Shown here: piece after piece, positions 1,319 through 13,898 of the stretch
Layout of the letters: each line of letters opens with the position of its first letter
Numbering within the stretch: position 1 is the first letter of the stretch
Assembly (NCBI GenBank): GCA_963666565.1
Contig: OY762911.1
Span: 4,722,145-4,786,144 of the forward strand
Length of the DNA stretch: 64,000 bases
Direction: 5' to 3'
From: Thermoanaerobaculia bacterium
GTDB lineage: Bacteria; Acidobacteriota; Thermoanaerobaculia; Multivoradales; Multivoraceae
The notes under the pieces: generated by a model
What the model was told of the DNA's origin: nothing
What the model saw: only the letters and a program-made list of their open reading frames with translations
Database searches by the model: none
Translations under genes and position numbers: made by a program

Positions 1319-1378
1319 TTCCGAGTGAACTCGCGCGAGGCGCCAGCCTCGCTCCTTCCTGTTGAGAGGGCGGCAGGC

Positions 1379-2878
1379 ATGGGCAAGGACACCGGCTTCA
1401 AGGAGTACGCGCGCGCCGCGGTTCCCTACCAGGATCCGCTGATCCGCCTGAGTCACTACGGCGAGTTCCTGGCGCCGGTGCCGGAACAGCACCTCGCCAC
1501 CCAGGGCGCCCGCTGCATGGACTGCGGCGTCCCCTTCTGCCAGTCCGACGAAGGCTGCCCGATCGACAACCTGATCCCGGAGTGGAACGACCTCGTCTAC
1601 CAGGGCCGCTGGAAGGAAGCGCTGCGGCGCCTGGAGAGGACGAACAACTTCCCCGAGTTCACCGGCCGCGTCTGCCCCGCCCCGTGCGAGGGCGCCTGCG
1701 TGCTGGGGATCACCGACCCGGCGGTGACGATCAAGAACATCGAGAACGCGATCGTCGACCGCGGCTTCGAGGAGGGCTGGATCGTTCCCCGCCCGCCCGT
1801 CAGGCGCACCGGCAAGAAGGTCGCGATCGTCGGTTCCGGGCCGGCGGGACTCGCCGCGGCGGCTCAGTTGAACGGCGTCGGCCACTCGGTCGCCGTCTTC
1901 GAACGCGAGGACCGCATCGGCGGCCTGCTGATGTACGGCATCCCGAACATGAAGCTCGACAAGCGCCTGGTCGTCGACCGGCGGATCGACCTGATGCGGG
2001 CCGAGGGCATCGAGTTCGTGACCGGCGCCCACGTCGGCGTGAACGTCGACGCCGCCGATCTGCGGCGCGACCACGACGCGATCCTGCTCGCCTGCGGCGC
2101 GACGAAGCCGCGCGATCTCCCCATCCCGGGCCGCGAGCTCGCGGGCGTCCATTTCGCGATGGACTTCCTGACCGAGCACACCCGTGCCCTTCTCGACGCC
2201 GATCTGCCGAGTGACGGCGCCCACCCTGTCCAGGCGCCGATTCACGCATCCGGAAAGAACGTCATCGTGATCGGCGGCGGCGACACCGGCGCCGACTGCA
2301 TCGCGACCGCAGTGCGCCACGGCTGCGCCTCGCTGGTTAACTTCGAACTGCTGGAGCGGCCGCCGGACGACCGGGCCGCCGATAACCCGTGGCCGGAATG
2401 GCCCCGCATCTTCCGCGTCGAGTACGCGCACGCCGAAGCCGCGGCCCGGTTCGGCGCCGACCCGCGCGTGTTCTCCGTTCTCTCCAAGCGCTTCGTCGAC
2501 GACGGCGCCGGCGGCGTCGCCGGTATCGAGACCGTCCGCGTCGCCTGGAAACGGGACGCCGGCGGCCGCTTCGCGATGGAGGAAGTGCCCGGAACCGAAG
2601 AGACCTTCGAGGCCGAACTCGTGCTCCTGGCAATGGGCTTCCTCGGCCCCGAAGCGACTCTCGGCGAGCGCTTGGGCCTCGCCACGGACGAGCGCAGCAA
2701 CTTCGCGGCAGAACCCGGCCGGTACGCGACCTCGGTCGAGGGGGTCTTCGCCGCCGGCGACTGCCGCCGCGGACAGAGCCTGATCGTGTGGGCGATCGCC
2801 GAGGGCCGCGGCGCCGCGGCCCGGATCGACGAGTACCTGACCGGGGCCACCGAACTGCCGCTGCCGTCGGCGCTCTGA
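1379..2878 (+). CDS. gltD: Glutamate synthase small subunit
   Basis: [28 protein letters not shown] and GGGDTG motifs; follows gltB; ATG at 1379 (MGKDTGF). Confidence 0.97.
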
Positions 2879-3049
2879 CCACCCTCCGTTCTGGTCGAAC
2901 AGATCGAACACCTCGATGCGGCATCCCACCGCGCGAACCCGACAGGTGTGCTCTTGACTCCTCGGAGGAGGACATCAGGGACTACTCCACCGGCGAGCTT
3001 CCAAGGGCGATGTTCAACTGAGATGGGCTGCACCAAGAGGTGCCCTCAC

Positions 3050-3524
3050 TCCATCTCTGCACCCCCGCCTTCGCGGCCGTCGACAAGGCCTTGGCCGCTC
3101 GGCGCCCCAACGCGCCGCTTGAAGCCGCGCCCTACCACACGCCCCATCACGACGGAACCTGATCCCAACTCAGAGTCCAGAAGCCGAGCGACCGCCGAGC
3201 TACTCGCCGCCCACAACCAGTCGATCACCAGCGCATCGAACAACGCACCGAAACGAGAGTCTCCCTCCGACCAGGGTGCGCTGATCGTGAGAACCCCCGT
3301 GCTCCGCGCACCGCACGCGGAGCACGTCCGCGGCCAAGATGGTCCGGTACGCTGCCGGATACGGGGGTCCCGATCTCGGCATCGCAGGTACCTCCTCCTA
3401 CGAGGAGGAAGTGCCTGCGGAACCGGGGCAAGCTCAACTCGTCCCCCTTCGATTCGGAAGGCCCCAGTGGTCTTCCGCCTTTCCCCCGGCATGCGACAAG
3501 GTCAATGAACGTCTTCGGAGAGCC
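3050..3524 (-). pseudogene. Frameshifted, truncated ISL3-family transposase relic
   Basis: Fragments YRTILAADVLRVRCAEHG and VLTISAPWSEGDSRFGALFDALVIDWL..SSAVARLL lie in different frames; ISL3-like terminus GGCTCT begins at 3524 on the minus strand. Confidence 0.75.
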
Positions 3525-4113
3525 AGTACCCGAACGCTTTCTCCAGATTCTCTCTGGCAGAGCTAACCGCTTGGCGCACATACTCGGCTTCAGAATCGGC
3601 ACGAATCCGACTCAGCTCTCGCCGAACCGTAGTCAGGATCCGAGTAGCATTGCGCATATCGGGATGCCGTGCATACGGGCGAAGGGCACGACGATGTTCC
3701 AGAAGTGCGCGGAGACTCCAATCTCGCAGTTCTGGGTGGCTGTACATGGGCTCTGTCGTTCTCGTGTCTGAGACACCATCCAAGATGCGAAAGACGATCG
3801 TCGCTTTGTAGTTCTCTGCAGCCATCCAGTCTGGATCATGCCAAGAGTCGAGTCTACTAAGGGCGTTCTCCACTCGCGTCGGAACCTCGACGTCGATCAG
3901 GCGCACCATGCGATCCTCTTCCTTCGCTTCGGCGAATTCTCCTTGGAAAAACGAAAAGAGAATCGGCAGGGAGACAACGGCTAGAGAAGGCAGTAGAGCC
4001 ACAAAGAAAGGCTCGTTCAGGAAACGCCATAGGCCTCGGCGCTGTCCCTTCATTGGGCCAGGCTCACAAGTGGCCTGTATCTTCGATTCGTCGGCTGACG
4101 CGCTACTCTTCAC
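3502..4113 (-). CDS. Hypothetical protein with N-terminal membrane segment (island cargo)
   Basis: 203-aa ORF in lower-GC DNA; hydrophobic stretch PFFVALLPSLAVVSLPILFSFF; the last codons overlap the ISL3 end. Confidence 0.6.
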   Translation of the reverse strand: MKSSASADESKIQATCEPGPMKGQRRGLWRFLNEPFFVALLPSLAVVSLPILFSFFQGEFAEAKEEDRMVRLIDVEVPTRVENALSRLDSWHDPDWMAAENYKATIVFRILDGVSDTRTTEPMYSHPELRDWSLRALLEHRRALRPYARHPDMRNATRILTTVRRELSRIRADSEAEYVRQAVSSARENLEKAFGYWLSEDVH

Positions 4114-4184
4114 CCAAAGCGTCTCCCTGGTGTCAGCGGTTCCGAGAGAGTAGGGGGCCTCTGGCTGGGGGCGCTCAACCTAGC

Positions 4185-6590
4185 CTAGAAGCTGAACCGA
4201 GCGCCAATCTGTAACTGACGCCAGGACGTGACTCGGCCGGACGGTATGCCGAGGTCTTCGGGAACTACGCCGCCCTCCACGTTTCGCTGGCTGAAGCCGA
4301 CCGCGAAGCTGTGTTCGTCGAATAGGTTAAAGGCCTCGACGAACACGTCCAGGCGCATTTCATCGCCGAACCGGAAGAACCTGCCGACGCGGACATCGAC
4401 CGTCTGGAGCGACTCGTTCCTGAAGGTGTTTCGTCCTACGACGGAACCATCGATGATGGCTCGGTAGTCGGGGCAGTTGAAGATGGGCCACCCGCAGCCG
4501 ATACTGTCGAAGCCTCGGACGGGTGTGTCGCGGTCGTTCACATCAACGGCCGTGTACGGCGTTCCCGACTGGTAGTTCAGGATGCCGGAGATCTGGAAGT
4601 CGGCCGGCAACTGGACCATGCCCGTAACTACGAGCCGGTGCTTCACGTCACGATCCGAGAGGCCCCAGTCGTAGTCCAGGTTGCCGGTGTCGGAGATCGT
4701 GACGCCGGTCGCCGAACGCTCGTTCGAGTCGGTGTCGCGATCCTCGCCCCAGGTGTAGTGGGCGCCGAACTGGTAGCGACCGGTGAAGCGCTTGTTCGCC
4801 TTGAGCGTGACCGCCTGATACTCGGACTCGCCCCGAGACTGGCGAACGAGGACTTCGGCGCACCGGATTTCGTCGAGACCCGGGCACACGTCATTGCGGC
4901 CGGCCCACATCGGGCGGCCGTACGGGTCGTAGCCGCCGAAGACCCGGTTGAAGTCCGTGTTGCGCTGCAGGCTGGTCGCTTCGGCATACACGGCATCGAC
5001 GCCGGCGCTCCAGCCGCCGCCGAGTTCCCGCTCCCAGCCGACGCTGGCGCGCAGCGTTTGGGCGTCGTCGAACTCGGGATCCACGTACGAGATGGCGGGA
5101 ATGATGCCCGGCGGCGGGTTCTCGTTGTCGATCTGCGTCCCGAGCGGCACGTAGCCGTTCTGGCCGGGACGAACCGTGATGCGACCGTAGTTCGGCGGTA
5201 CGCCGTTGGCCTGAACCTGGTTGGCGAACAGCAGGGTGGGCGTGCGGCCGAAGAAGAAGCCGATGCCGCCGCGGAGGACCGACCGGCCCTCGTCCTGGGA
5301 CCTGGCGAAGCCGAAGCGGGGCGCCAGGTTCTCGGTGTCCGGGATCTGGCGGCCGTCCGGGTGCAGGTGATCCAGGCCGTCCGGGTTGTCCGTGGACGTA
5401 TAGCGGAGGCCGTAACTGATTGTCACGTTGTCCCGCTTGAGACTGTCCTGCCCGTAGAAGGCGAGGGCCTCCTGAGTCTCGTCGTAGTTCGGGTACGTCG
5501 AATCGCCGAACCAGATTCGCGCCCGGAAAGCCTCGTTGCTCAAGAAGTCCTCCGGCGAGCCGAAGTCATAGCGGCCGTCGCGGCTGCCGGCGAAGAGCTG
5601 CGCCAGATCGTCCTTCGAGTAGTCGACGCCGAACTTCATGTCATGGGCACCGAACAGGTAGGAGAAGTCGTTCTTGACCTGGAGCTGCTCTTCCTCAACG
5701 AAGATCGGGAGGAAGTCGAACTTGCCAACGCTGTCAAACTCGTCGAAGAAGAAGCGGACCTGCGCCTCGATTGGCGTGCCGACCCGCTTGGACAGGCGAT
5801 CCAGATTGTCCGTCGCGGACTGAATCCGGAACTCGTTGACGCCACGGCTGCCGACGACCGAGGTCATCGATGCGATGATGGACAGCGTGTCCTCCGTCTT
5901 CAGCGACTCCTCGTCCAGGTAGTCGCTCTCCCGCTCGAAGTCCGTCACATTGGCGCGCAGGGTGATGAGGTTCGAGTCGTTGATCTGGTGGTCCAGCTTG
6001 CCGAAGAGGATCTGGTTGCTCACCGAGCGCAGGAACAAGCCGGTGGCGGAACCGTCGGCGTTTCGCTCGAAGCCGTCGACCAGAGCCGCGAATCCGGGCT
6101 CTGTCTCCGCCCTCTTCATGATCAGGTCGTAGGTGCTGTTGACGCCGGTCGAGCGCAGCGAGCGGGAGAACGGGATGTCCTGGTCGCGGAGGTCGACGCC
6201 GAAGTAGTAGTGGGTGCGATCCTGCTTGAACGGACCACCGACCGAGAAGCCGTAGTTCTGGGTGTCGAACTCGTCCACCGGTCGCGAGCCGTCACGGCCC
6301 CGGAAGTCGTCGAGAGGCGACGAAGGAATGTCCTCGGCCATGCTGTCGTCGCGGAACTGGTAGAAGGCCGAGCCCCTCATCTCGTTCGTGCCGGACTTCG
6401 TGACCACGTTGACGAAGGCGCCGCCGTGCCGGCCGTACTCGGCCGAGAAGCCGTTGGTGATGACCTGGAACTGGCGAACCGTGTCCTGGGCGATGATCAG
6501 GCCGTCGTTCTCGGTCGCCTCGCCGCCCCGGCCATAGCCGAAGAAGGTGCTCTTGTTGTCCGCGCCGTCAACGGAAAGGCCGCTGTACAT
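4185..6590 (-). CDS. 5'-truncated TonB-dependent receptor cassette (801 aa, no signal peptide or N-terminal domain), paralog of 8368-11301
   Basis: Colinear with the full-length receptor from MYSGLSVDG to C-terminal RFSF; in-frame TGA two codons upstream of the ATG; no internal stops. Confidence 0.9.
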   Translation of the reverse strand: MYSGLSVDGADNKSTFFGYGRGGEATENDGLIIAQDTVRQFQVITNGFSAEYGRHGGAFVNVVTKSGTNEMRGSAFYQFRDDSMAEDIPSSPLDDFRGRDGSRPVDEFDTQNYGFSVGGPFKQDRTHYYFGVDLRDQDIPFSRSLRSTGVNSTYDLIMKRAETEPGFAALVDGFERNADGSATGLFLRSVSNQILFGKLDHQINDSNLITLRANVTDFERESDYLDEESLKTEDTLSIIASMTSVVGSRGVNEFRIQSATDNLDRLSKRVGTPIEAQVRFFFDEFDSVGKFDFLPIFVEEEQLQVKNDFSYLFGAHDMKFGVDYSKDDLAQLFAGSRDGRYDFGSPEDFLSNEAFRARIWFGDSTYPNYDETQEALAFYGQDSLKRDNVTISYGLRYTSTDNPDGLDHLHPDGRQIPDTENLAPRFGFARSQDEGRSVLRGGIGFFFGRTPTLLFANQVQANGVPPNYGRITVRPGQNGYVPLGTQIDNENPPPGIIPAISYVDPEFDDAQTLRASVGWERELGGGWSAGVDAVYAEATSLQRNTDFNRVFGGYDPYGRPMWAGRNDVCPGLDEIRCAEVLVRQSRGESEYQAVTLKANKRFTGRYQFGAHYTWGEDRDTDSNERSATGVTISDTGNLDYDWGLSDRDVKHRLVVTGMVQLPADFQISGILNYQSGTPYTAVDVNDRDTPVRGFDSIGCGWPIFNCPDYRAIIDGSVVGRNTFRNESLQTVDVRVGRFFRFGDEMRLDVFVEAFNLFDEHSFAVGFSQRNVEGGVVPEDLGIPSGRVTSWRQLQIGARFSF

Positions 6591-6750
6591 GCCTCACTGG
6601 TCGGGCTTCAGTTCCATGAAGGTCCGAAGAGCAGGAGAGAGTCCGGGAACAACCGAGAACTCCTGTAGACACCGTCACTTGTGAAGGTCTCGTTACGTTG
6701 CCCAAGGCCGCGGATGCGGTTGACGGCAAACGGCAAATCGCCGACGGGAT

Positions 6751-6778
6751 TGGGGGAAGTGGGGGACACGGTGAGGGA
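6751..6778 (+). promoter_or_regulatory. Candidate integrase arm-type binding repeats TGGGGGA/TGGGGGA/TGAGGGA
   Basis: Three short direct repeats just upstream of the integrase start; similar G-rich repeats commonly precede P4-like integrases. Confidence 0.4.
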
Positions 6779-6811
6779 GTGCCATACGGCCGTCCTTGCT
6801 ATGTTCGAGCG

Positions 6812-7948
6812 ATGCCCCTTACCCAACGGAGAGTCGACGCCGTCAGACCCACCGGCCGGCCCTTCAAGCTGTACGACCGCGACGGCCTGATGCTCAGGGT
6901 CACCGCCGCCGGCAAGAGCCGATGGGTCTGGAGAGGCGTCGTCAAGGGAAAGCGGATCGAGGTCGGCATGGGCTCGACACGTTTCCGCTCGCTGAAGGAG
7001 GCAAGGGAGGTCGCCTTCGAGAATACGAGAACGGCGAGACTGGGAGGCGATCCCAGAGCGGCCGTGTCCTCTGACGTTCCGACCTTCAGGGAAGCCGCGA
7101 CGCTCTATCTGGAGATCCAGTCCACCGATTGGGGAGAGGCCCACTCCCGCCAAGTCAGACGGATGCTGGAGCGCCATGCGTTCCCGGGCTTCGGGGACCT
7201 TCCGGTAGACGAGATCCAGACCGCCGACGTGATGCGGGTTCTGGTACCGCTGTGGCGGCGTCAGAGGCCGACCGGACAGCGGCTCAGGCAGAGGATCGCC
7301 GGCGTCATGGCGTGGAGCGTAGCGGCGGGCTACCGGGCCGACGATCCGACGAGCACTCTCTCGGCGGTCTTGCCCGCCGGCCGGACGCGGCGGAAGCACC
7401 ATCGCTACCTGCCCGCCGTCAAGCTGCGCGAAGCACTGGTCAAGGTGCAGGACTCCGGAGCATGGATCGGAACGCGGTTGGCCATGCGCTTCCTGGCGCT
7501 GACGGCGGCGCGCTCCGGCGAGGTGCGTGGAGCGAGGTGGCGGGAGATCGATCTGGAGTCGGTCACGTGGACCGTTCCCGCCTCGCGGATGAAGGCGCGC
7601 CGTGAGCACCGGGTCCCCCTCTCCAGCGCGGCCCTTGCGGTCCTTGAGCGGGCCGGCGGACTTCGGGGTCGGGGCAGAGGGCTCGTCTTTCCCGGCGTCC
7701 AGGGGAAGATGGTCGGTGTGTCGGTGTTCGGTCGGCTGCTGAGAGACCTCGATATCGATTGCAGCCCGCACGGGTTCCGCAGTGCGTTTCGGTCGTGCTG
7801 CTCCGACGAGGGGATCGACCGGGAGTTGGCGGAACAGGCCCTGGCACACGCGGTCGGGAGCCAGGTCGAGCAGTGCTATGCGCGAAGCGACGTGCTGGAG
7901 CGCCGCCGAGACGTCATGGAGGCTTGGGGTGCGTTCCTGGTCCAGTAG
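6812..7948 (+). CDS. P4-like tyrosine integrase with N-terminal arm-binding domain
   Basis: N-terminus LTQRRVDAVRP..KLYDRDGLMLRV..G..RWVWR; catalytic R (ARSGEVRG), K (MKARREH), HxxR (HGFRS), H (LAH) and Y (QCYARSD). Confidence 0.93.
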   Translation: MPLTQRRVDAVRPTGRPFKLYDRDGLMLRVTAAGKSRWVWRGVVKGKRIEVGMGSTRFRSLKEAREVAFENTRTARLGGDPRAAVSSDVPTFREAATLYLEIQSTDWGEAHSRQVRRMLERHAFPGFGDLPVDEIQTADVMRVLVPLWRRQRPTGQRLRQRIAGVMAWSVAAGYRADDPTSTLSAVLPAGRTRRKHHRYLPAVKLREALVKVQDSGAWIGTRLAMRFLALTAARSGEVRGARWREIDLESVTWTVPASRMKARREHRVPLSSAALAVLERAGGLRGRGRGLVFPGVQGKMVGVSVFGRLLRDLDIDCSPHGFRSAFRSCCSDEGIDRELAEQALAHAVGSQVEQCYARSDVLERRRDVMEAWGAFLVQ

Positions 7949-8190
7949 CGGACGGACCGGACATGCAGGGCCGTGGTCCAGGCTCGCGCCGCAGCTTCGC
8001 CGCGGCGCGGGGGGCTTTCCCAGGGGCAATCCAGTCCCCTGGGCGGAGCCACGGAGCTGGCCCTGCCGTTGGCTCATAGACAGCCGGATCGAGCGCCTCC
8101 GCGAAGGCTTCAACGCCCCGGCGGAGACTCTCCGCGTGAAGTCCGCGAACCGTGCCGTCGATTCAATATCTTGAAGCGAGCCGCCCTCCG

Positions 8191-8220
8191 TTGACGGGGG
8201 GCGAAGCGATTCTCTATAGT
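8191..8220 (+). promoter_or_regulatory. Sigma70-like promoter of the TonB receptor (TTGACG-N18-TATAGT)
   Basis: Near-consensus -35 and -10; TTCAA-N4-TTGAA palindrome at 8162-8175 just upstream. Confidence 0.6.
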
Positions 8221-8367
8221 CGTACCCGGTCTGTGGCCTTGCGCGCGAGCGCCCCACCACCGCCACCCACTCGGACAATCGAGAGACCTTCCACGCGTGA
8301 AGCGCACGCCGGTGAATTCGTGCCGAATTCGACGGCGCCTACTCAGACACAGAGGAGAAACCCCACC

Positions 8368-11301
8368 ATGCAGTCGACCCGCCTCCGGGCACGTCTTCTT
8401 GCGACCCTCCTGGCAACGGCCTGCGTCCTCCTGATCGGCGGCGCCGGCTTCGCCCAGACGATCACCGGCACCGTCCAGGGCTACATCTCGGATGTCGAGG
8501 GCGGCCCGATTCCCGGCGTCACGGTGACCGTCACCAACCAGGACACCGGCATCGCCCGCGCCGCCATCGCGGACGCCAACGGCTTCTACAGCGCCAAGGC
8601 GCTCCAGGTCGGCACCTACTCGGTGACCGCCGAACTCGCCGGCATGCAGACCACGCAGCAGAGCGACGTCTCCGTCCTGGTCGGCCAGATCAAGGACGTC
8701 AACCTGACCCTCGAGGTCGAGTCGACCTCCGAGGTGATCACCGTCACGTCCGAGGCCCCGATCATCGAGGTCAGTCGTTCGGGCGCCGCCAACTACATCG
8801 ACGAGGTCGCCATCGAGAGCCTGCCGATCGTCGGCCGCGACTTCACCGACTTCGCGATTCTCACTCCCGGCGTCCAGCGCGACCGTTCCCGCGGCTTCCT
8901 GACCATGGCCGGTCAGCGCGGCATGTACAGCGGCCTGTCGGTCGACGGCGCGGACAACAAGAGCACCTTCTTCGGTTACGGCCGCGGCGGCGAGGCCACC
9001 GAGAACGACGGCCTGATCATCGCCCAGGACACGGTGCGCCAGTTCCAGGTCATCACGAACGGCTTCTCGGCCGAGTACGGCCGGCACGGCGGCGCCTTCA
9101 TCAACGTCGTCACGAAGTCCGGCACGAACGAGCTCAGGGGTTCGGCCTTCTACCAGTTCCGGGACGACAGCATGGCCGAGGATCTGCCGTCCTCGCCGCT
9201 CGACGACTTCAACGACCGCGACGGCTCGCGTCCGGTGGACACGTTCGACACCCAGAACTACGGCGTCTCGATCGGCGGGCCGTTCAAGCGCGACCGTACC
9301 CACTACTATTTCGGAATCGACCAGCGCGACCAGGACATCCCGTTCACCCGGTTCCTGACCAACCGCGGCGGCAGCGTCTATGACCTGGTCATGCAGCGAG
9401 CGCAGAGCGAGCCCGCCTTCGCCGCCCTGGTGGACGGCTTCGAGCGAAACTCCGACGGCTCCGCCACCGGCCTGTTCACGCGCTCGGTGAGCAACCAGAT
9501 CCTGTTCGGCAAGCTGGACCACCAGATCAGCGACGCGAACCTGATCACCCTGCGAGCCAACTGGACGGACTTCGAACGGGAGAGCAGCTTCCTCGACGAG
9601 GAGTCGCTCAAGACGGAGGACACGCTGTCGATCATCGCGTCGATGACCTCGGTCGTCGGCAGCCGCGGCGTGAACGAGTTCCGAATTCAGACGGCCGACG
9701 ACAACCTGGATCGCCTGTCCTTGCGGGTCGGCACGCCGATCGAGGCGCAGGTCCGCTTCCGCTGGAACGGCGCGAGCGTCGGCAAGTACGACTTCCTGCC
9801 GATCTTCGTGGAGGAGTCGCAGCTCCAGGTCAAGAACGACTTCTCCTACCTGTTCGGCGCCCACGACATGAAGTTCGGCGTCGACTACTCGAAGGACGAC
9901 CTGGCCCAGCTCTTCGCCGGCAGCCGCGACGGCCGCTACGACTTCCGCTCGCCGGAGGACTTCCTGTCCAACAACTCAAGCGCCGCCCGGATCTGGTTCG
10001 GCGATTCGACCTATCCGAACTACGACGAGACCCAGGCGGCTCTCGCCTTCTACGGCCAGGACAGCCAGAAGCGCGACAACATGACGATCAGCTACGGCCT
10101 CCGCTACACGTCCACGGACAACCCGGACGGTCTCGATCATCTGCATCCGGACGGCCGCCAGATCCCGGACACCGAGAACCTGGCGCCCCGCTTCGGCTTC
10201 GCCATGGCCCAGGACGAGGGCCGGTCGGTTCTCCGCGGCGGCATCGGCTTCTTCTTCGGGCGCACGCCCACCCTGCTGTTCGCCAACCAGGTTCAGGCCA
10301 ACGGCGTGCCGCCGAACTACGGCCGCATCACCGTCACTCCCGGCGAGAACGGCTACGTGCCGCTCGGAACGCCGATCGACAATGAGAACCCGCCGCCGGG
10401 CATCATCCCCGCGATCTCCTACGTCGACCCCGAGTTCGACGACGCCCAGACGCTGCGCGCCAGCATCGGCTGGGAGCGGGAGCTCGGCGACGGCTGGAGC
10501 GCCGGAGTCGACGCCGTGTACGCGGAGGGCACGAGCCTGCAGCGCAACACGGACTTCAACCGCGTCTTCGGCGGCTACGACGAGTACGGTCGCCCGATGT
10601 GGAACGGCCGCAACGAAGGAACCTGCCCCGGAGTCCCGGGCGCCGAATGCGCCGAGATCCTGGTTCGGCAGTCCCGCGGCGAGTCCGAGTACCAGGCGGT
10701 CACGCTGAAGGCGAACAGGCGCTTCACCGGCCGCTACCAGATGAGCGCCCACTACACCTGGGGCAAGGATCGCGACACCGACTCGAACGAGCGTTCGGCG
10801 ACCGGCGTCACGATCTCGGACACCGGCAACCTCGACTACGACTGGGGTCTCTCGGACCGCGACGTCAAGCACCGTCTGGTGGTCACCGGCATGATCCAGT
10901 TGCCGCTCGACTTCCAGATCTCGGGCATCGTGAACTACCAGTCGGGTACCCCGTACACGCTGGTCGACAACGGCGTCGACTGGGCTTACTGTCGCACGGT
11001 CGGCTGGAACTGCCCGGACTACCGTGCGGTGATGGACGGCGTCGTCGTCGGCCGGAACACGGAGCGGAACGAGTCGATCCAGACGATCGACGTTCGCCTC
11101 GGCAAGTTCTTCACCTTCGGCGACGGCATGCGGCTCGACGTCTTCGTCGAGGCGTTCAACCTGTTCGACGAGAACAGCTTCGGCGTCGGCTTCAACCAGC
11201 GCAACATCCGCAACGGCAACGTTCCCGACGACTTCGGGGTCCCGTCGTACCTGACGACGCGCCCGCGCCAGTTGCAGATCGGAGGCCGGTTCAGCTTCTA
11301 G
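8368..11301 (+). CDS. Full-length Oar-like TonB-dependent receptor with carboxypeptidase-regulatory-like N-terminal domain
   Basis: AGAGGAG RBS, signal peptide (..GGAGFA-Q), GTVQG..D..GGPIPGVTVTVTN, plug motif FSAEYGRHGGAFINVVTKSGTN, terminal Phe. Confidence 0.95.
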   Translation: MQSTRLRARLLATLLATACVLLIGGAGFAQTITGTVQGYISDVEGGPIPGVTVTVTNQDTGIARAAIADANGFYSAKALQVGTYSVTAELAGMQTTQQSDVSVLVGQIKDVNLTLEVESTSEVITVTSEAPIIEVSRSGAANYIDEVAIESLPIVGRDFTDFAILTPGVQRDRSRGFLTMAGQRGMYSGLSVDGADNKSTFFGYGRGGEATENDGLIIAQDTVRQFQVITNGFSAEYGRHGGAFINVVTKSGTNELRGSAFYQFRDDSMAEDLPSSPLDDFNDRDGSRPVDTFDTQNYGVSIGGPFKRDRTHYYFGIDQRDQDIPFTRFLTNRGGSVYDLVMQRAQSEPAFAALVDGFERNSDGSATGLFTRSVSNQILFGKLDHQISDANLITLRANWTDFERESSFLDEESLKTEDTLSIIASMTSVVGSRGVNEFRIQTADDNLDRLSLRVGTPIEAQVRFRWNGASVGKYDFLPIFVEESQLQVKNDFSYLFGAHDMKFGVDYSKDDLAQLFAGSRDGRYDFRSPEDFLSNNSSAARIWFGDSTYPNYDETQAALAFYGQDSQKRDNMTISYGLRYTSTDNPDGLDHLHPDGRQIPDTENLAPRFGFAMAQDEGRSVLRGGIGFFFGRTPTLLFANQVQANGVPPNYGRITVTPGENGYVPLGTPIDNENPPPGIIPAISYVDPEFDDAQTLRASIGWERELGDGWSAGVDAVYAEGTSLQRNTDFNRVFGGYDEYGRPMWNGRNEGTCPGVPGAECAEILVRQSRGESEYQAVTLKANRRFTGRYQMSAHYTWGKDRDTDSNERSATGVTISDTGNLDYDWGLSDRDVKHRLVVTGMIQLPLDFQISGIVNYQSGTPYTLVDNGVDWAYCRTVGWNCPDYRAVMDGVVVGRNTERNESIQTIDVRLGKFFTFGDGMRLDVFVEAFNLFDENSFGVGFNQRNIRNGNVPDDFGVPSYLTTRPRQLQIGGRFSF

Positions 11302-11355
11302 GCTGAGCGGTGCCAGAGCAGCCGCGGCGCCCGAGGCCGCGGCAAAGAGAAATCG

Positions 11356-11383
11356 AGGGCCTCCCCAGCAACGGGGAGGCCCT
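11356..11383. terminator. Intrinsic terminator hairpin, probably bidirectional
   Basis: AGGGCCTCCCC-agcaac-GGGGAGGCCCT between convergent genes, with A-rich and T-rich flanks. Confidence 0.75.
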
Positions 11384-11409
11384 TCTTCGTCAACGATCGC
11401 GGAGCGGCT

Positions 11410-12378
11410 TCAGAGCCGGAGAAGTCGAAGGAGTTCCGCTTCGTCGGCACACATCTGCGCCGCCTTGGCGATCTCGACCTCGGACAAGCCGCGGAGGCCG
11501 GCCAGGCGTTCGGCAAGGTCCGGGCTCGTCGGTACGCCGCGCGCATCGAGCACGGCGACCGCCATCCGGGCACGCCCTGCGGCGAGGCCCTCGTCACGGC
11601 CCTCGTCGCGCTCAGCTCGCAGCCACGGATCGTCGTCCGGGCCGGTACCCTCGAGCGCGCCCATAGCGCGGCCCACGCGACGGAGAACCTCCAGGGTCTC
11701 CGGCGACGGCAGGTCGCGGCTCAGGGCAACGTGGATCTCTTCGGCGGTCCAGCCCGGAAAGGCCCGGCTGGAGGCCGCTTCCCGGAAGCGCTCGCCGTGG
11801 TGAAGGTGAATCGTCAGACCGGACAGCAACGACCTCGGATACGAGCGTTCGTCCGGCACGTCGATCCAGACCTCCGGGAAGCCCCAAGCCTCGTACAGCG
11901 GCAGCTTCCACAACCGCGCGTCGGTCGAGTAGTCGACTTCCAGCACGACGTCCGGCAGTTCGCCGCCGTCAATGTCCACCCGCGCCCCGGCCGGCAACGC
12001 GGCCGGATCCAGGTAGAGGATCTGGTCGGCCTGCATCAGCACCCTGTACCCGCCGTCAGCCTTGGCGCGCACCAGATCCGCCGTCCCCAACGTCTCGATC
12101 GGCGCGCCTCTCGACGCCGCGATGCGCTCGGCCAACCTGGCCAACCGCTGCGAGGGGCGCTCGTGATAGACGGTCGTCGGTTCGCGCAGGACCATGGCCC
12201 GCTCCGTGCGTTCCTCCCAGTACTCCACGCGGCCCTCGTAGTCGTCGATCCGCTCCTTCGGGATCCGAACCGTCCGGCAACCGGACTCGGCGGCCAGGGC
12301 CAGCGGCGATGCAACCGGCTCGGGACGTCCCGCTTCCGGCGGCCGCGGGTTCGGGGTTCGGACGGGCGGTTCAGCCAT
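11410..12378 (-). CDS. Uma2 (DUF820)-like PD-(D/E)XK endonuclease-fold protein
   Basis: HERPS.., QADQILY, LPDVVLEVDYS, KLPLYEAWGFPEVW and a C-terminal EGRDEG tail. Confidence 0.8.
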   Translation of the reverse strand: MAEPPVRTPNPRPPEAGRPEPVASPLALAAESGCRTVRIPKERIDDYEGRVEYWEERTERAMVLREPTTVYHERPSQRLARLAERIAASRGAPIETLGTADLVRAKADGGYRVLMQADQILYLDPAALPAGARVDIDGGELPDVVLEVDYSTDARLWKLPLYEAWGFPEVWIDVPDERSYPRSLLSGLTIHLHHGERFREAASSRAFPGWTAEEIHVALSRDLPSPETLEVLRRVGRAMGALEGTGPDDDPWLRAERDEGRDEGLAAGRARMAVAVLDARGVPTSPDLAERLAGLRGLSEVEIAKAAQMCADEAELLRLLRL

Positions 12379-12399
12379 GGCCCGAGCGTACACCGGCGC

Positions 12400-12545
12400 T
12401 CGGGCCTTCGGCAGCGAGAACCCGGACTGCGGAACGTCGCGGTCGAGAAAGGTCTCCACGAAACTCTGGCGCCACAGGGCGGACAGGTCGCCGTCCTCGG
12501 CCAGAAAGCTGCGAGGGAACCCGCCCCGCAACCAGAGCTTCCGCC
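12400..12545 (-). pseudogene. Short internal fragment of an AAA/DUF4143-type ATPase gene
   Basis: LWLRGGFPRSFLA...WRQSFVETFLDRDVPQ resembles that family's mid-protein motif; no P-loop nearby. Confidence 0.55.
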
Positions 12546-12623
12546 ATCCGCCTGGAGTTGCTTGAAAATCGCTCGGTCAAGAGACGATTTTCCCGAAACT
12601 TCCGGTGCGGACCGCGTCTCAGG

Positions 12624-13898
12624 CTACCCGGCCACCCAGGGAATCGTCTGCGGACCTTCGGGCAGCACGCAGATGCGCGCGTCGGGCCGCGCCGCCACGC
12701 ACTCGGCGAGCGCGTCGTCGAGGTCGGGCGCCGGCTCGAAGTGCGCGGCGGCAAGCTGCTCCCCGCTCAGGCCGTCCGCCTTGACCAGCACCCGGGCGCG
12801 GCGCTGGATCAGCGCCTGAACCTGGACCTGCCACTGATCTGGCTCGGTCGTCGGACGAGCCTCGATCTGCTGGAGCAATTCCTCGGGCGAGCCGCCGCGG
12901 CCGAGCAGTTCGGCGTAGCGGCCGTGGTCCGGAATGCCGTCGCTGCACTCGGCCGCGCAGAGGATGGTTCCGCCGTCGGCGACCACCTGCGCGGCCGCCG
13001 ACATCCCCTTGACCGCCTGGTAGAGGTTCTGGTCGAGCGGGTAGCCGGAGTTCGTCGTCACGACGACGTCGAACCGGTGGCCGGTCTCCCGCATGGCAAT
13101 CGGCTTCGCGGTCGCGCAGGCCCGCCGGTGCATCTCGAAGAGTTCGCCAGCGAAGACGTACGTGATCCTCTGCTGCCGGTCGAGCAGCACGTCGACGCTG
13201 AAGTGCGGCTTCGCCTCCGGCCGCGCCGCGATCGCCCGGATGTCGCCGTGCAGCGGGTTGTCGTCGATGATCCCCCAGGTCGACCGCGGATCGCCCACGC
13301 GGGCGGCGTCGTGCAGGGTGAGCACCGTGTCGAGCCCGGCGAGCCCCGGCGCCACCATCTTCGGGCCGCCCGAGAAGCCCGCGAAGAAGTGCGGCTCGAC
13401 GAAGCCGGTCGTGATCCGGAGGTCGGCCTCCAGCCAGTGGCGGCAGAGCCGGGTCGGGACGCCGGCGCCGGTCTCTCCCAGGTCGACGAGCGAGGCGTCG
13501 TCGCGGGCGTCGTGGTTGACCACGCGGCAGGCGCCGAGGATCTCGTCGCCCAGCATCGCCCGGAGTTCGGCCCGCGTGTTGGCCCGATGAGTGCCGGTGG
13601 CGATCAGGATGGTGACGTCCTCCGGGCGAACGATGCCGTCGAGTTCCCGCAGAACCGCGGCGACCATCTCCCGCCGCGGCTGCGCCCGGGTGATGTCGCA
13701 CACCGAGATCGCGACGGTCTGTCCCGGCTTCGCCAACTCGCGGAGGGGCGGTCCGGCGACCGGTCGCCGCAGCGCCGCTGTCAGAGCCGCGGCCGGTTCG
13801 TCCAGTGCGGGCGCCTGGATCGGCTCGATCACGGTCGTCCGCTCGCGCGGCACGTTGATCGTCAGGCCGCTGCGGCCGTAGGCCAGGCGCACACGCAT
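12624..13898 (-). CDS. larA: Nickel-dependent lactate racemase family protein
   Basis: CDITR, IATGTHR, NHDA, EPHFFAGFSGGPKMVAPG and PLDQNLYQAVKG motifs. Confidence 0.9.
   Translation of the reverse strand: MRVRLAYGRSGLTINVPRERTTVIEPIQAPALDEPAAALTAALRRPVAGPPLRELAKPGQTVAISVCDITRAQPRREMVAAVLRELDGIVRPEDVTILIATGTHRANTRAELRAMLGDEILGACRVVNHDARDDASLVDLGETGAGVPTRLCRHWLEADLRITTGFVEPHFFAGFSGGPKMVAPGLAGLDTVLTLHDAARVGDPRSTWGIIDDNPLHGDIRAIAARPEAKPHFSVDVLLDRQQRITYVFAGELFEMHRRACATAKPIAMRETGHRFDVVVTTNSGYPLDQNLYQAVKGMSAAAQVVADGGTILCAAECSDGIPDHGRYAELLGRGGSPEELLQQIEARPTTEPDQWQVQVQALIQRRARVLVKADGLSGEQLAAAHFEPAPDLDDALAECVAARPDARICVLPEGPQTIPWVAG

Follow-up and report, generated by a model that had tools for sequence, protein, structure and literature searches.

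A candidate integrase-mediated inversion switch at an Oar-like receptor gene of a sponge-associated acidobacterium

Can the integrase of a genomic island act as a switch that exchanges most of an outer-membrane receptor? This question is raised by a locus in a Thermoanaerobaculia bacterium (genome G000, contig OY762911.1), located within the final 64 kb of a 4.79-Mb single-contig genome of 70% G+C, a stretch referred to below as the window. Here, the gene for an Oar-like TonB-dependent receptor and a promoterless, 5'-truncated homologue of it (the cassette) point away from each other on either side of a tyrosine integrase gene. A first, sequence-only reading of this DNA had proposed that inversion between a short site in each copy would move the promoter and 5' end of the receptor gene onto the silent cassette. 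The present analysis, based on a comparison set of 42 genomes of the genus (G000 and 41 others), assigns about an even chance to the existence of such an integrase-mediated inversion switch at this locus. The organism itself is a sponge-associated acidobacterium, as follows from the sequencing runs that contain this stretch, which relate to one host organism with weaker matches in sponge and marine metagenomes, and from the source names of the receptor homologues, which include Holophagales, Acidobacteria and Thermoanaerobaculia bacterium.

A silent receptor cassette under purifying selection

The receptor gene, listed as ORF (open reading frame) 8152/8368-11301 (+), is complete, and the promoter, ribosome-binding site and signal peptide that had been ascribed to it are all present. 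An AGGAG box and a signal-peptide-like N-terminus can be read from the sequence, while a promoter-like site, of which 0.1 would be expected in shuffled sequence, was found once. Pfam models assign residues 35-116 to a CarboxypepD_reg domain (PF13620) and residues 248-868 to the barrel (PF25183); no Plug model matched the receptor, even at E values up to 10, and a sequence search for solved structural relatives returned none. Homologues of this protein are named TonB-dependent receptor by NCBI. A search with the full protein in 24 other genomes of the genus returned a full- or near-full-length match in 22 and a match split over contigs in two more, while the barrel part was matched in 40 of the 41 other genomes.

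The second copy is likewise as it had been described, the ORF list and the alignment both confirming a start in mid-gene, a stop upstream and an unbroken frame of 801 codons. The cassette ORF begins at MYSGLSVDG, with an in-frame TGA directly upstream ('...DQ*GMYSG'), and exhibits 85% amino acid identity (681/802) to receptor residues 186-977, from which it differs at 111 positions, including a divergent stretch around residues 865-880. At the nucleotide level, inverted repeats I1-I5 span the whole 2.4 kb, with 85.6% identity overall (2038/2382). None of the four indels that distinguish the copies disrupts the frame, and the reading register of the cassette matches that of the receptor relative to the core sequence which they share.

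The silent cassette is under strong purifying selection. Its counterpart in G050, the only other species among the 42 genomes to carry the module (at the same place beside gltD and in the same orientation), is separated from it by 96 synonymous and 38 non-synonymous changes, corresponding to a synonymous divergence (dS) of 0.193, a non-synonymous divergence (dN) of 0.021 and a dN/dS ratio of 0.11, a pattern that departs from neutrality with a binomial p of 7e-32 and a ratio equally low as that of the resident receptor orthologues (0.06-0.15). The integrase genes of the two modules have the same dS as the cassettes (0.184; dN/dS 0.146), and their non-coding DNA is 84.9% and 81.4% identical, i.e., 15-19% diverged. 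Comparison of the cassette with the expressed copy in G000 points in the same direction, with a dN/dS of 0.24 and changes at only 3 of 185 near-invariant family positions versus 108 of 607 others (p 2e-10), as does the polarised branch of the G000 cassette (19 synonymous and 14 non-synonymous changes, p 3e-5). Selection can only act on a fragment devoid of promoter, start region and signal peptide if these parts are occasionally joined to it.

For the expressed receptor gene, polarised dN/dS amounts to 0.277 on the G000 branch and 0.124 on that of G050, as compared to 0.048-0.22 in island-free terminal lineages and 0.32 on one internal branch, which is suggestive at most of relaxed constraint in G000.

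An att-type junction and a laterally acquired module

The homology between the receptor copies begins abruptly at GGCATGTACAGCGGCCT, the 17-bp perfect inverted repeat at which the sequence-only reading had placed the crossover. The repeat is indeed present at this border, but its length is unremarkable, the two copies sharing 35 perfect runs of at least 17 nt (13 of at least 25 nt, the longest measuring 58, 52 and 47 nt), and it is special solely as the first such run at the homology border. Similarly, the homology does start abruptly, but not altogether cleanly, as weak similarity (8/13 nt) persists for 13 nt further upstream.

The nature of this border emerged from paralogues of the integrase, which are 83-92% identical to it and were found in 24 of the 41 other genomes, often as several copies together with many fragments. 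When 13 distinct paralogous loci were aligned, the region of nucleotide homology was seen to include the DNA upstream of the integrase gene and to end only a few bases from 6594. One paralogous island, termed class-2 and present in G003 (where it measures ~33.9 kb), G016 and G041, encodes an integrase ~87% identical to that of G000 and has as its left flank a single-copy host region found in all 42 genomes. In 16 other genomes, the best match to this flank stops at one and the same base, beyond which the match continues in the three genomes that bear the island. At the occupied site, ...GAGGTCACAGCC is joined to ACGCTGGCCGGGC, and seven empty sites read ...GAGGTCACAGCC joined to GCCTCGACCGG; the far end of the island reads ...GGAGTCACAGCC joined to GCCTCGACCGG and repeats GTCACAGCC. 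By these sequences, the class-2 island is bounded by an attL/attR pair of the ordinary kind, which shares a core of 9 nt.

The end of the G000 cassette (...GCTGTACATGCC joined to TCACTGGTCGGGC) breaks on the same alignment column as the class-2 junction, with 10 of 13 island-end bases identical. Furthermore, the resident receptor site, read on the same strand (...GCTGTACATGCC joined to GCGCTGACCGGCC), resembles the empty class-2 attB (...GAGGTCACAGCC joined to GCCTCGACCGGCG) on both sides. The 13 nt beyond the core in the resident gene match the island ends of 11 of the 13 paralogues at 8-10 positions (10 of these at 9 or more); by comparison, 13-mers drawn at random from the genome reach at least 9 of 13 matches to the cassette-side 13-mer with a frequency of ~0.002. 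The shared junction column and the island-end match together indicate that the cassette occupies the place which belongs to host DNA at an integration junction. The earlier interpretation of the homology border as a recombination site is thereby upheld, since the border is a true junction of the att type as formed by integrases of this family, and the receptor gene thus contains an attB-like site at which an island of this family has recombined at least once. The motif TGGGGGACAC at 6760-6769, which is conserved in the integrase-proximal arm and also occurs in the attR arm of the class-2 island, is a candidate arm-type site.

Two variations at the receptor site were observed. Position 8913 is a T (GGT) in both module-bearing genomes and in G012, and a C in the 34 other orthologues; the T matches GATCAG at the island ends of most paralogues and may be coincidental or may have been left by an exchange at this place. 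In addition, the receptor gene of G057 (L047, G057:C239) lacks 266 nt, equivalent to ~8694-8953 and including the attB-like site, with the frame broken, which reflects either a real deletion beside the site or an assembly fault in this 340-contig genome.

As had been noted from the sequence, the integrase ORF is intact and located between the diverging receptor copies, and an island-type enzyme with an arm-binding domain is rightly considered unusual for such a switch. Candidate catalytic residues (R..K..HxxR..H..Y) can be recognized by eye in the motifs TAARSGE, HGFRSAFR, LAHAV and CYARSD of the translation. The enzyme scores 149 bits against the NCBIfam model PRK09692, below the cut-off of 434, and hence the designation 'P4-type' (P4/CP4-57-like) describes its architecture only. 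No tRNA gene was found in the window; such genes occur at two of 12 paralogue loci, in neither case within about 6 kb of the integrase, and no Rfam family was matched in 2800-12700. Across the genomes of the genus, the integrase family is also represented by numerous stand-alone fragments of its 3' end (residues ~300-415) and by remnants in tandem, which hints at successive islands replacing each other at the same sites.

The integrase and cassette are part of an insert whose limits are marked by breaks in blastn synteny at ~2868 and ~8093-8159 in 12 of 12 related loci, where gltD directly adjoins the upstream region of the receptor gene. The direct repeat TGCCGTCG is present at both outer ends of the insert, and comparison with relatives that possess a ~100-nt spacer at this place narrows the foreign part to about 2954-8089. 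This spacer, which lies between gltD and the receptor gene in the island-free genomes G012, G020, G001 and G057, is homologous to the outer insert ends (2869-2953 and 8090-8150) and is flanked by GCCGTCG-like direct repeats, while other relatives are without it; it is either a small element or a scar that an insert left behind on its loss.

The modules of G000 and G050 exhibit 93-95% nucleotide identity in the cassette and 94% in the integrase gene. Their left cargo differs completely, similarity ending at the stop codon of the cassette, and a search for the donor context of this cargo with 2954-4184 matched dispersed repeats only; these short repeats, often found at contig ends, are probably miniature mobile elements. 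For the ORF at 3502-4113, no match was found in Pfam or in the 41 other genomes. In a tree of barrel sequences, the two cassettes form a clade with 100/100 support on a long stem, positioned beside G010/G018 and apart from the resident genes, while the resident gene of G050 groups with those of G006 and G014, both of which lack the module. Moreover, dS between G000 and G050 is 0.19 for the modules and 0.32 for the resident receptor genes. Because of this tree placement and the lower dS of the modules, the sequences indicate that the module is foreign to both genomes and has either moved between lineages or been lost repeatedly. The possibility that the cassette is a recent local duplicate was considered and rejected, as it belongs to a separate allele lineage and the insert is absent from all 12 related loci.

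A second insert specific to G000 was found immediately 3' of the receptor gene (11385-12639). It contains an ORF (11410-12531, -) with a weak match, below cut-off, to Uma2 (putative restriction endonuclease; E 6e-4), and G050 has two copies of 72-74% similarity elsewhere. The features of the locus are collected in Table 1.

Table 1. Annotated and predicted features of the receptor locus, in window coordinates
Feature	Position	Strand	Remarks
gltD-like gene, glutamate synthase small subunit	1325-2878	+	Pfam Pyr_redox_2, Fer4_20; insert starts at its last codons
Insert, ~5.2 kb	2869-8149		Cassette, integrase and ~1.3 kb of other DNA; absent where gltD abuts the receptor upstream region
Two short dispersed repeats	3100-3436		~250 nt (3100-3350) and 93 nt (3344-3436); multi-copy in G000 and related genomes
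Low-GC ORF, 203 aa	3502-4113	-	GC 0.56-0.58 versus ~0.70; variable cargo
Silent receptor cassette	4185-6590	-	Intact 801-codon ORF corresponding to receptor codons 186-977; no promoter, no signal peptide
Left site, core of attL-type junction	6577-6593	-	Reverse complement of 8920-8936, GGCATGTACAGCGGCCT
Integrase-proximal arm of island end	6594-6811	+	Homologous to terminal ~210-220 nt of paralogous islands
Predicted invertible segment	6594-8919		Integrase, receptor promoter, ribosome-binding site and first 185 codons; from the two inverted sites
Tyrosine integrase, intact, 378 aa	6812-7948	+	PF13356 Arm-DNA-bind_3, PF22022 Phage_int_M, PF00589 Phage_integrase
Promoter-like site of receptor gene	8191-8220	+	TTGACG-18-TATAGT; sequence conserved in relatives
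Oar-like TonB-dependent receptor, 977 aa	8368-11301	+	Signal-peptide-like start, CarboxypepD_reg, barrel PF25183
attB-like site in receptor gene	8907-8936	+	Codons ~181-190; GGCCGGTCAGCGC then 17-nt core GGCATGTACAGCGGCCT (8920-8936)

The predicted inversion and its alternatives

The arrangement suggests the following course of events. A laterally acquired module, composed of an arm-domain integrase and a silent barrel, sits just upstream of a conserved Oar-like receptor gene, and the locus presents two sites that are inverted relative to each other and identical over the 17-nt core: on the left an attL-like site consisting of receptor 3' part, core and integrase-proximal arm, and on the right an attB-like site consisting of receptor 3' part, core and receptor 5' part. 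The integrase would recombine the two, strand exchange within the core inverting the segment between them, so that the integrase gene would be flipped together with the promoter and the coding region for the signal peptide, the CarboxypepD_reg domain and the beginning of the presumed plug. In this way, the 5' part of the receptor gene would be fused in frame to the alternative barrel, while the integrase arm would come to adjoin the old barrel, which would now be silenced. The architecture supports the earlier proposal that a flip of the promoter and 5' end would replace the 3' 80% of the receptor in frame. Since receptor sequence lies on both arms beyond the crossover, inversion would yield an attL-type site and an attB-type site once more; the reaction would accordingly be symmetric, and no directionality factor would be needed to reverse it. 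Under this proposal, the non-canonical pairing of attL with attB would be efficient for this arm-binding integrase and the flip would occur at present; its benefit would lie in variation of a surface-exposed receptor, allowing evasion of phages or otherwise, and the assignment of phage or host evasion as its purpose is conjecture.

The flipped form was sought among Logan contigs of four runs (X16-X19), all from one study, contigs of this kind dropping rare variants. No inverted form was found among them and no strand-changing joint was listed; in X16 a single contig bridges both sites (6540-8973) in the reference orientation, and contigs of X17-X19 bridge the left site in that same orientation. 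Nor did the proposed search for a relative in the flipped state succeed, as G050, the sole other module-bearing genome, has the reference orientation. No loose contig ends were present at 6593/6594 or 8919/8920 among the ends listed. The X16 contig ends at a 32-nt perfect repeat and cannot, for that reason, be joined to its flanks in a k-mer graph; the contig data bound the flipped form only loosely, and its absence cannot be concluded. The analogy to phase variation that had been drawn from the sequence is thus backed by architecture, selection and the att junction, but not by inverted DNA in these contigs or in G050. Of note, loose ends at 8453, 8814/8848, 8882, 9729, 11051 and 11383, where Logan contigs continue into unlike sequence, recur in up to four runs and may be due to related strains or species in the same samples, or to small insertions.

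Several further observations weigh, together with this uniform orientation, against an inversion switch. Recombination of attL with attB is not the canonical reaction of arm-binding integrases, and of the candidate arm motif TGGGGGACAC a single copy is left in the module. The 17-nt core is identical in 22 of 37 receptor orthologues, island-free ones included, and its conservation is therefore no evidence of use. No partner site was found near the paralogous integrases at the 8 loci probed, and only one of 12 integrase loci, that of G050, is flanked by long inverted repeats (11 of 12 are without); from their sequences, the paralogous enzymes look like plain island integrases. Two metagenome scans yielded no further copy of the module, the one for a cassette-side 23-mer beside the core giving 0 matches and the one for the integrase recovering five loci, all of them paralogues without a cassette; no viral contig carrying the integrase was matched. 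Two public proteins are also to be listed here, i.e., P0060 (786 aa), whose first residues are exactly MYSGLSVDG, which shares 86% identity with either copy and which is encoded on a 2.5-kb contig, and P0061 (792 aa), a truncated receptor relative starting with MAGQRGIYSG. Finally, the cassette of G050 is broken by insertions of 2 nt and 8.25 kb and by an in-frame TAG codon, and is accordingly dispensable there. The sequence-only reading had named neutral evolution and inactivating mutations as signs against a switch; the dN/dS ratio is far from 1, but inactivating mutations are present in this other species. Though recently broken, the G050 cassette keeps the substitution pattern of a constrained gene. 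The 8.25-kb insertion itself (L037, G050:C1, 9169-17420) has the same 9 nt at both ends and contains a copy of an ISL3-type transposase gene, a second tyrosine recombinase gene and, from reading of the translations, terminase- and portal-like ORFs.

Foremost among the alternatives, and regarded as possible yet on the unlikely side, is the explanation that the module is a relic or passenger: an island would once have integrated in, or imprecisely left, the receptor gene and taken its 3' part along, fragment and integrase later landing upstream, with no flipping today. In a variant of this explanation, the cassette is constrained since the element-borne barrel is, or was, expressed in another manner, for example by integration in direct orientation at the receptor attB with replacement of the barrel; phages 21 and e14 are known to replace the 3' end of a gene in this way upon integration in icd. 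Such an origin agrees with the junction being an integration junction, with the long stem that sets the cassette lineage apart from every resident allele, with a module younger than the split of its hosts (dS 0.19 vs 0.32) and with its absence from the closest relatives of G050, as well as with the decay of the G050 cassette and the reference orientation alone being seen among contigs of the four runs. It is further favoured by a decayed, foreign 3' receptor fragment in G047 (L038, G047:C1, 13647-14592, -), a frameshifted stretch of ~290 codons nearest to G005/G019 (84% nucleotide identity) that lies ~2.5 kb downstream of the intact receptor gene in the same, direct orientation, and that may be the relic of an earlier barrel replacement at this locus. 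What speaks against a mere relic is that both genomes share the inverted, non-integrated arrangement at the same gltD site, such that the synonymous divergence of 0.19 under a dN/dS of 0.11 was most simply accrued in this arrangement, and that none of the 42 genomes carries the cassette allele as an expressed gene or in direct arrangement. A gene-restoring integrative element of the icd type was also considered and set aside, as the host gene has kept its own 3' end attached and the second copy lies in inverted orientation.

Returning to the inversion switch, a more far-reaching form of it may be advanced, but it is a doubtful one and is offered tentatively. The module could be a portable receptor-swap device, i.e., an integrative element of sponge acidobacteria which brings along an integrase and a second version of the barrel, passes from species to species and settles next to the receptor gene of its host, its attL and the internal attB-like site of that gene together forming a reversible, factor-independent inversion switch. 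This would amount to a domesticated integration junction, possibly serving a phage receptor.

An inversion switch might also exist in which the 2.4-kb inverted repeats undergo RecA-dependent homologous recombination, the role of the integrase being confined to moving the island. Such exchange would find suitable substrates in the 13 perfect runs of at least 25 nt (up to 58 nt), but sequence divergence of 14% strongly lowers homologous exchange, and the homology border coincides with the att junction. The two copies furthermore lack any mosaic. Of the changes private to the expressed copy, 11 of 59 agree with the cassette, as compared to 13-18% in four of six island-free control lineages (4-18% in all six), identity profiles are alike for co-resident and foreign orthologues, and no 120-nt window displays raised within-genome identity. 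This absence of a mosaic fits an exchange confined to the border and speaks against frequent homologous crossovers or gene conversion. A precedent for homologous recombination is provided by the Streptococcus pneumoniae PPH090 prophages, which have a lytA copy 85-92% identical to that of the host, the two recombining in an apparently integrase-independent manner that can invert the chromosome (PMC8637289). As at the G000 locus, a mobile element there carries a homologue of a host gene beside its integration site and the copies could recombine to invert DNA; unlike what is proposed for G000, the exchange is apparently independent of the integrase and does not constitute a gene-variant switch. 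On balance, a RecA-dependent switch is considered improbable in G000.

A role of the cassette as a silent template (pilS/vls-like) from which the expressed gene is altered by non-reciprocal conversion, with no inversion involved, would be in keeping with an intact, promoterless homologous copy adjoining that gene, but gene conversion and mosaicism were rejected, given private-site sharing as in the controls and the lack of conversion tracts or a raised window, and this explanation is hardly tenable.

Comparison with known systems

To our knowledge, programmed swapping of the barrel of TonB-dependent transporters has been demonstrated only in gut Bacteroides. In B. fragilis, phase variation of SusC/SusD proteins by a site-specific invertase was reportedly described by Nakayama-Imaohji and colleagues in 2009; that system shares with the present locus the inversion of outer-membrane protein genes by a tyrosine recombinase, and differs in receptor class and recombinase type. 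If the G000 locus switches, the strategy would extend to sponge-dwelling Acidobacteriota and to the Oar receptor class, and receptor variants would travel between species as a cassette with its own recombinase. The use of an arm-domain island integrase as an invertase, with an integration junction paired to an in-gene attB-like site, would then represent a route from integration to phase variation. The locus also offers a testable handle on phage-host or host-symbiont conflict at the surface of an uncultured symbiont.

Among integrative elements, the locus is close to the class-2 island, with which it shares, besides the similar integrase, the terminal ~210 nt upstream of the integrase gene, the junction column and a similar att core (GTCACAGCC in the island versus GTACATGCC in G000). 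The two differ in that the class-2 island has direct repeats, an unrelated host site and empty sites elsewhere, while the G000 module has one junction and an inverted, intact attB-like site.

Gene-altering programmed inversions, a class in which inverted repeats lie inside a gene and in a truncated paralogue and recombinase genes are enriched nearby, have been surveyed across bacteria (Milman et al., NAR 2023, PMC9881135). Among the predicted targets, 'SusC/RagA' is enriched 8.9-fold and 'TonB-dependent receptor' 1.9-fold, and the cases confirmed by long reads belong to Actinobacteria, Bacteroidetes, Firmicutes and Proteobacteria; 'Acidobacteria' does not appear in the main text (PMC9881135). 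The G000 locus has the structural hallmarks of this class, namely a full-length gene with a promoterless truncated cassette, inverted sites within coding sequence and a recombinase gene between these sites; the defining feature, co-existing orientations, was not encountered among the contigs of the four runs or in G050, and the locus is thus classed as a candidate.

The closest known system is the BT1041 locus of B. thetaiotaomicron. There, the 5'-truncated susC-like genes BT1040 and BT1046 exchange with full-length BT1042 at a 7-bp site in a process that needs the tyrosine recombinase BT1041, as PCR detected the recombination and a mutant of the recombinase no longer displayed it (Porter et al. 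2020; bioRxiv 10.1101/521070). BT1041 acts on SusC-type genes with SusD partners, arranged in operons and with three recombination partners, whereas G000 has a lone Oar-like receptor with two partners. The G000 enzyme is moreover of the arm-binding type, its left site is an island junction, the module was laterally acquired, the host belongs to the Acidobacteriota and not the Bacteroidota, and recombination is here a prediction. Against these differences stand the features that both loci have in common: one full-length TonB-dependent transporter gene holding the sole complete 5' end beside a 5'-truncated homologue, a tyrosine recombinase gene inside the locus, a crossover at a short site in coding sequence near the 5' end and, as predicted for G000, a barrel that is swapped behind a fixed N-terminus.

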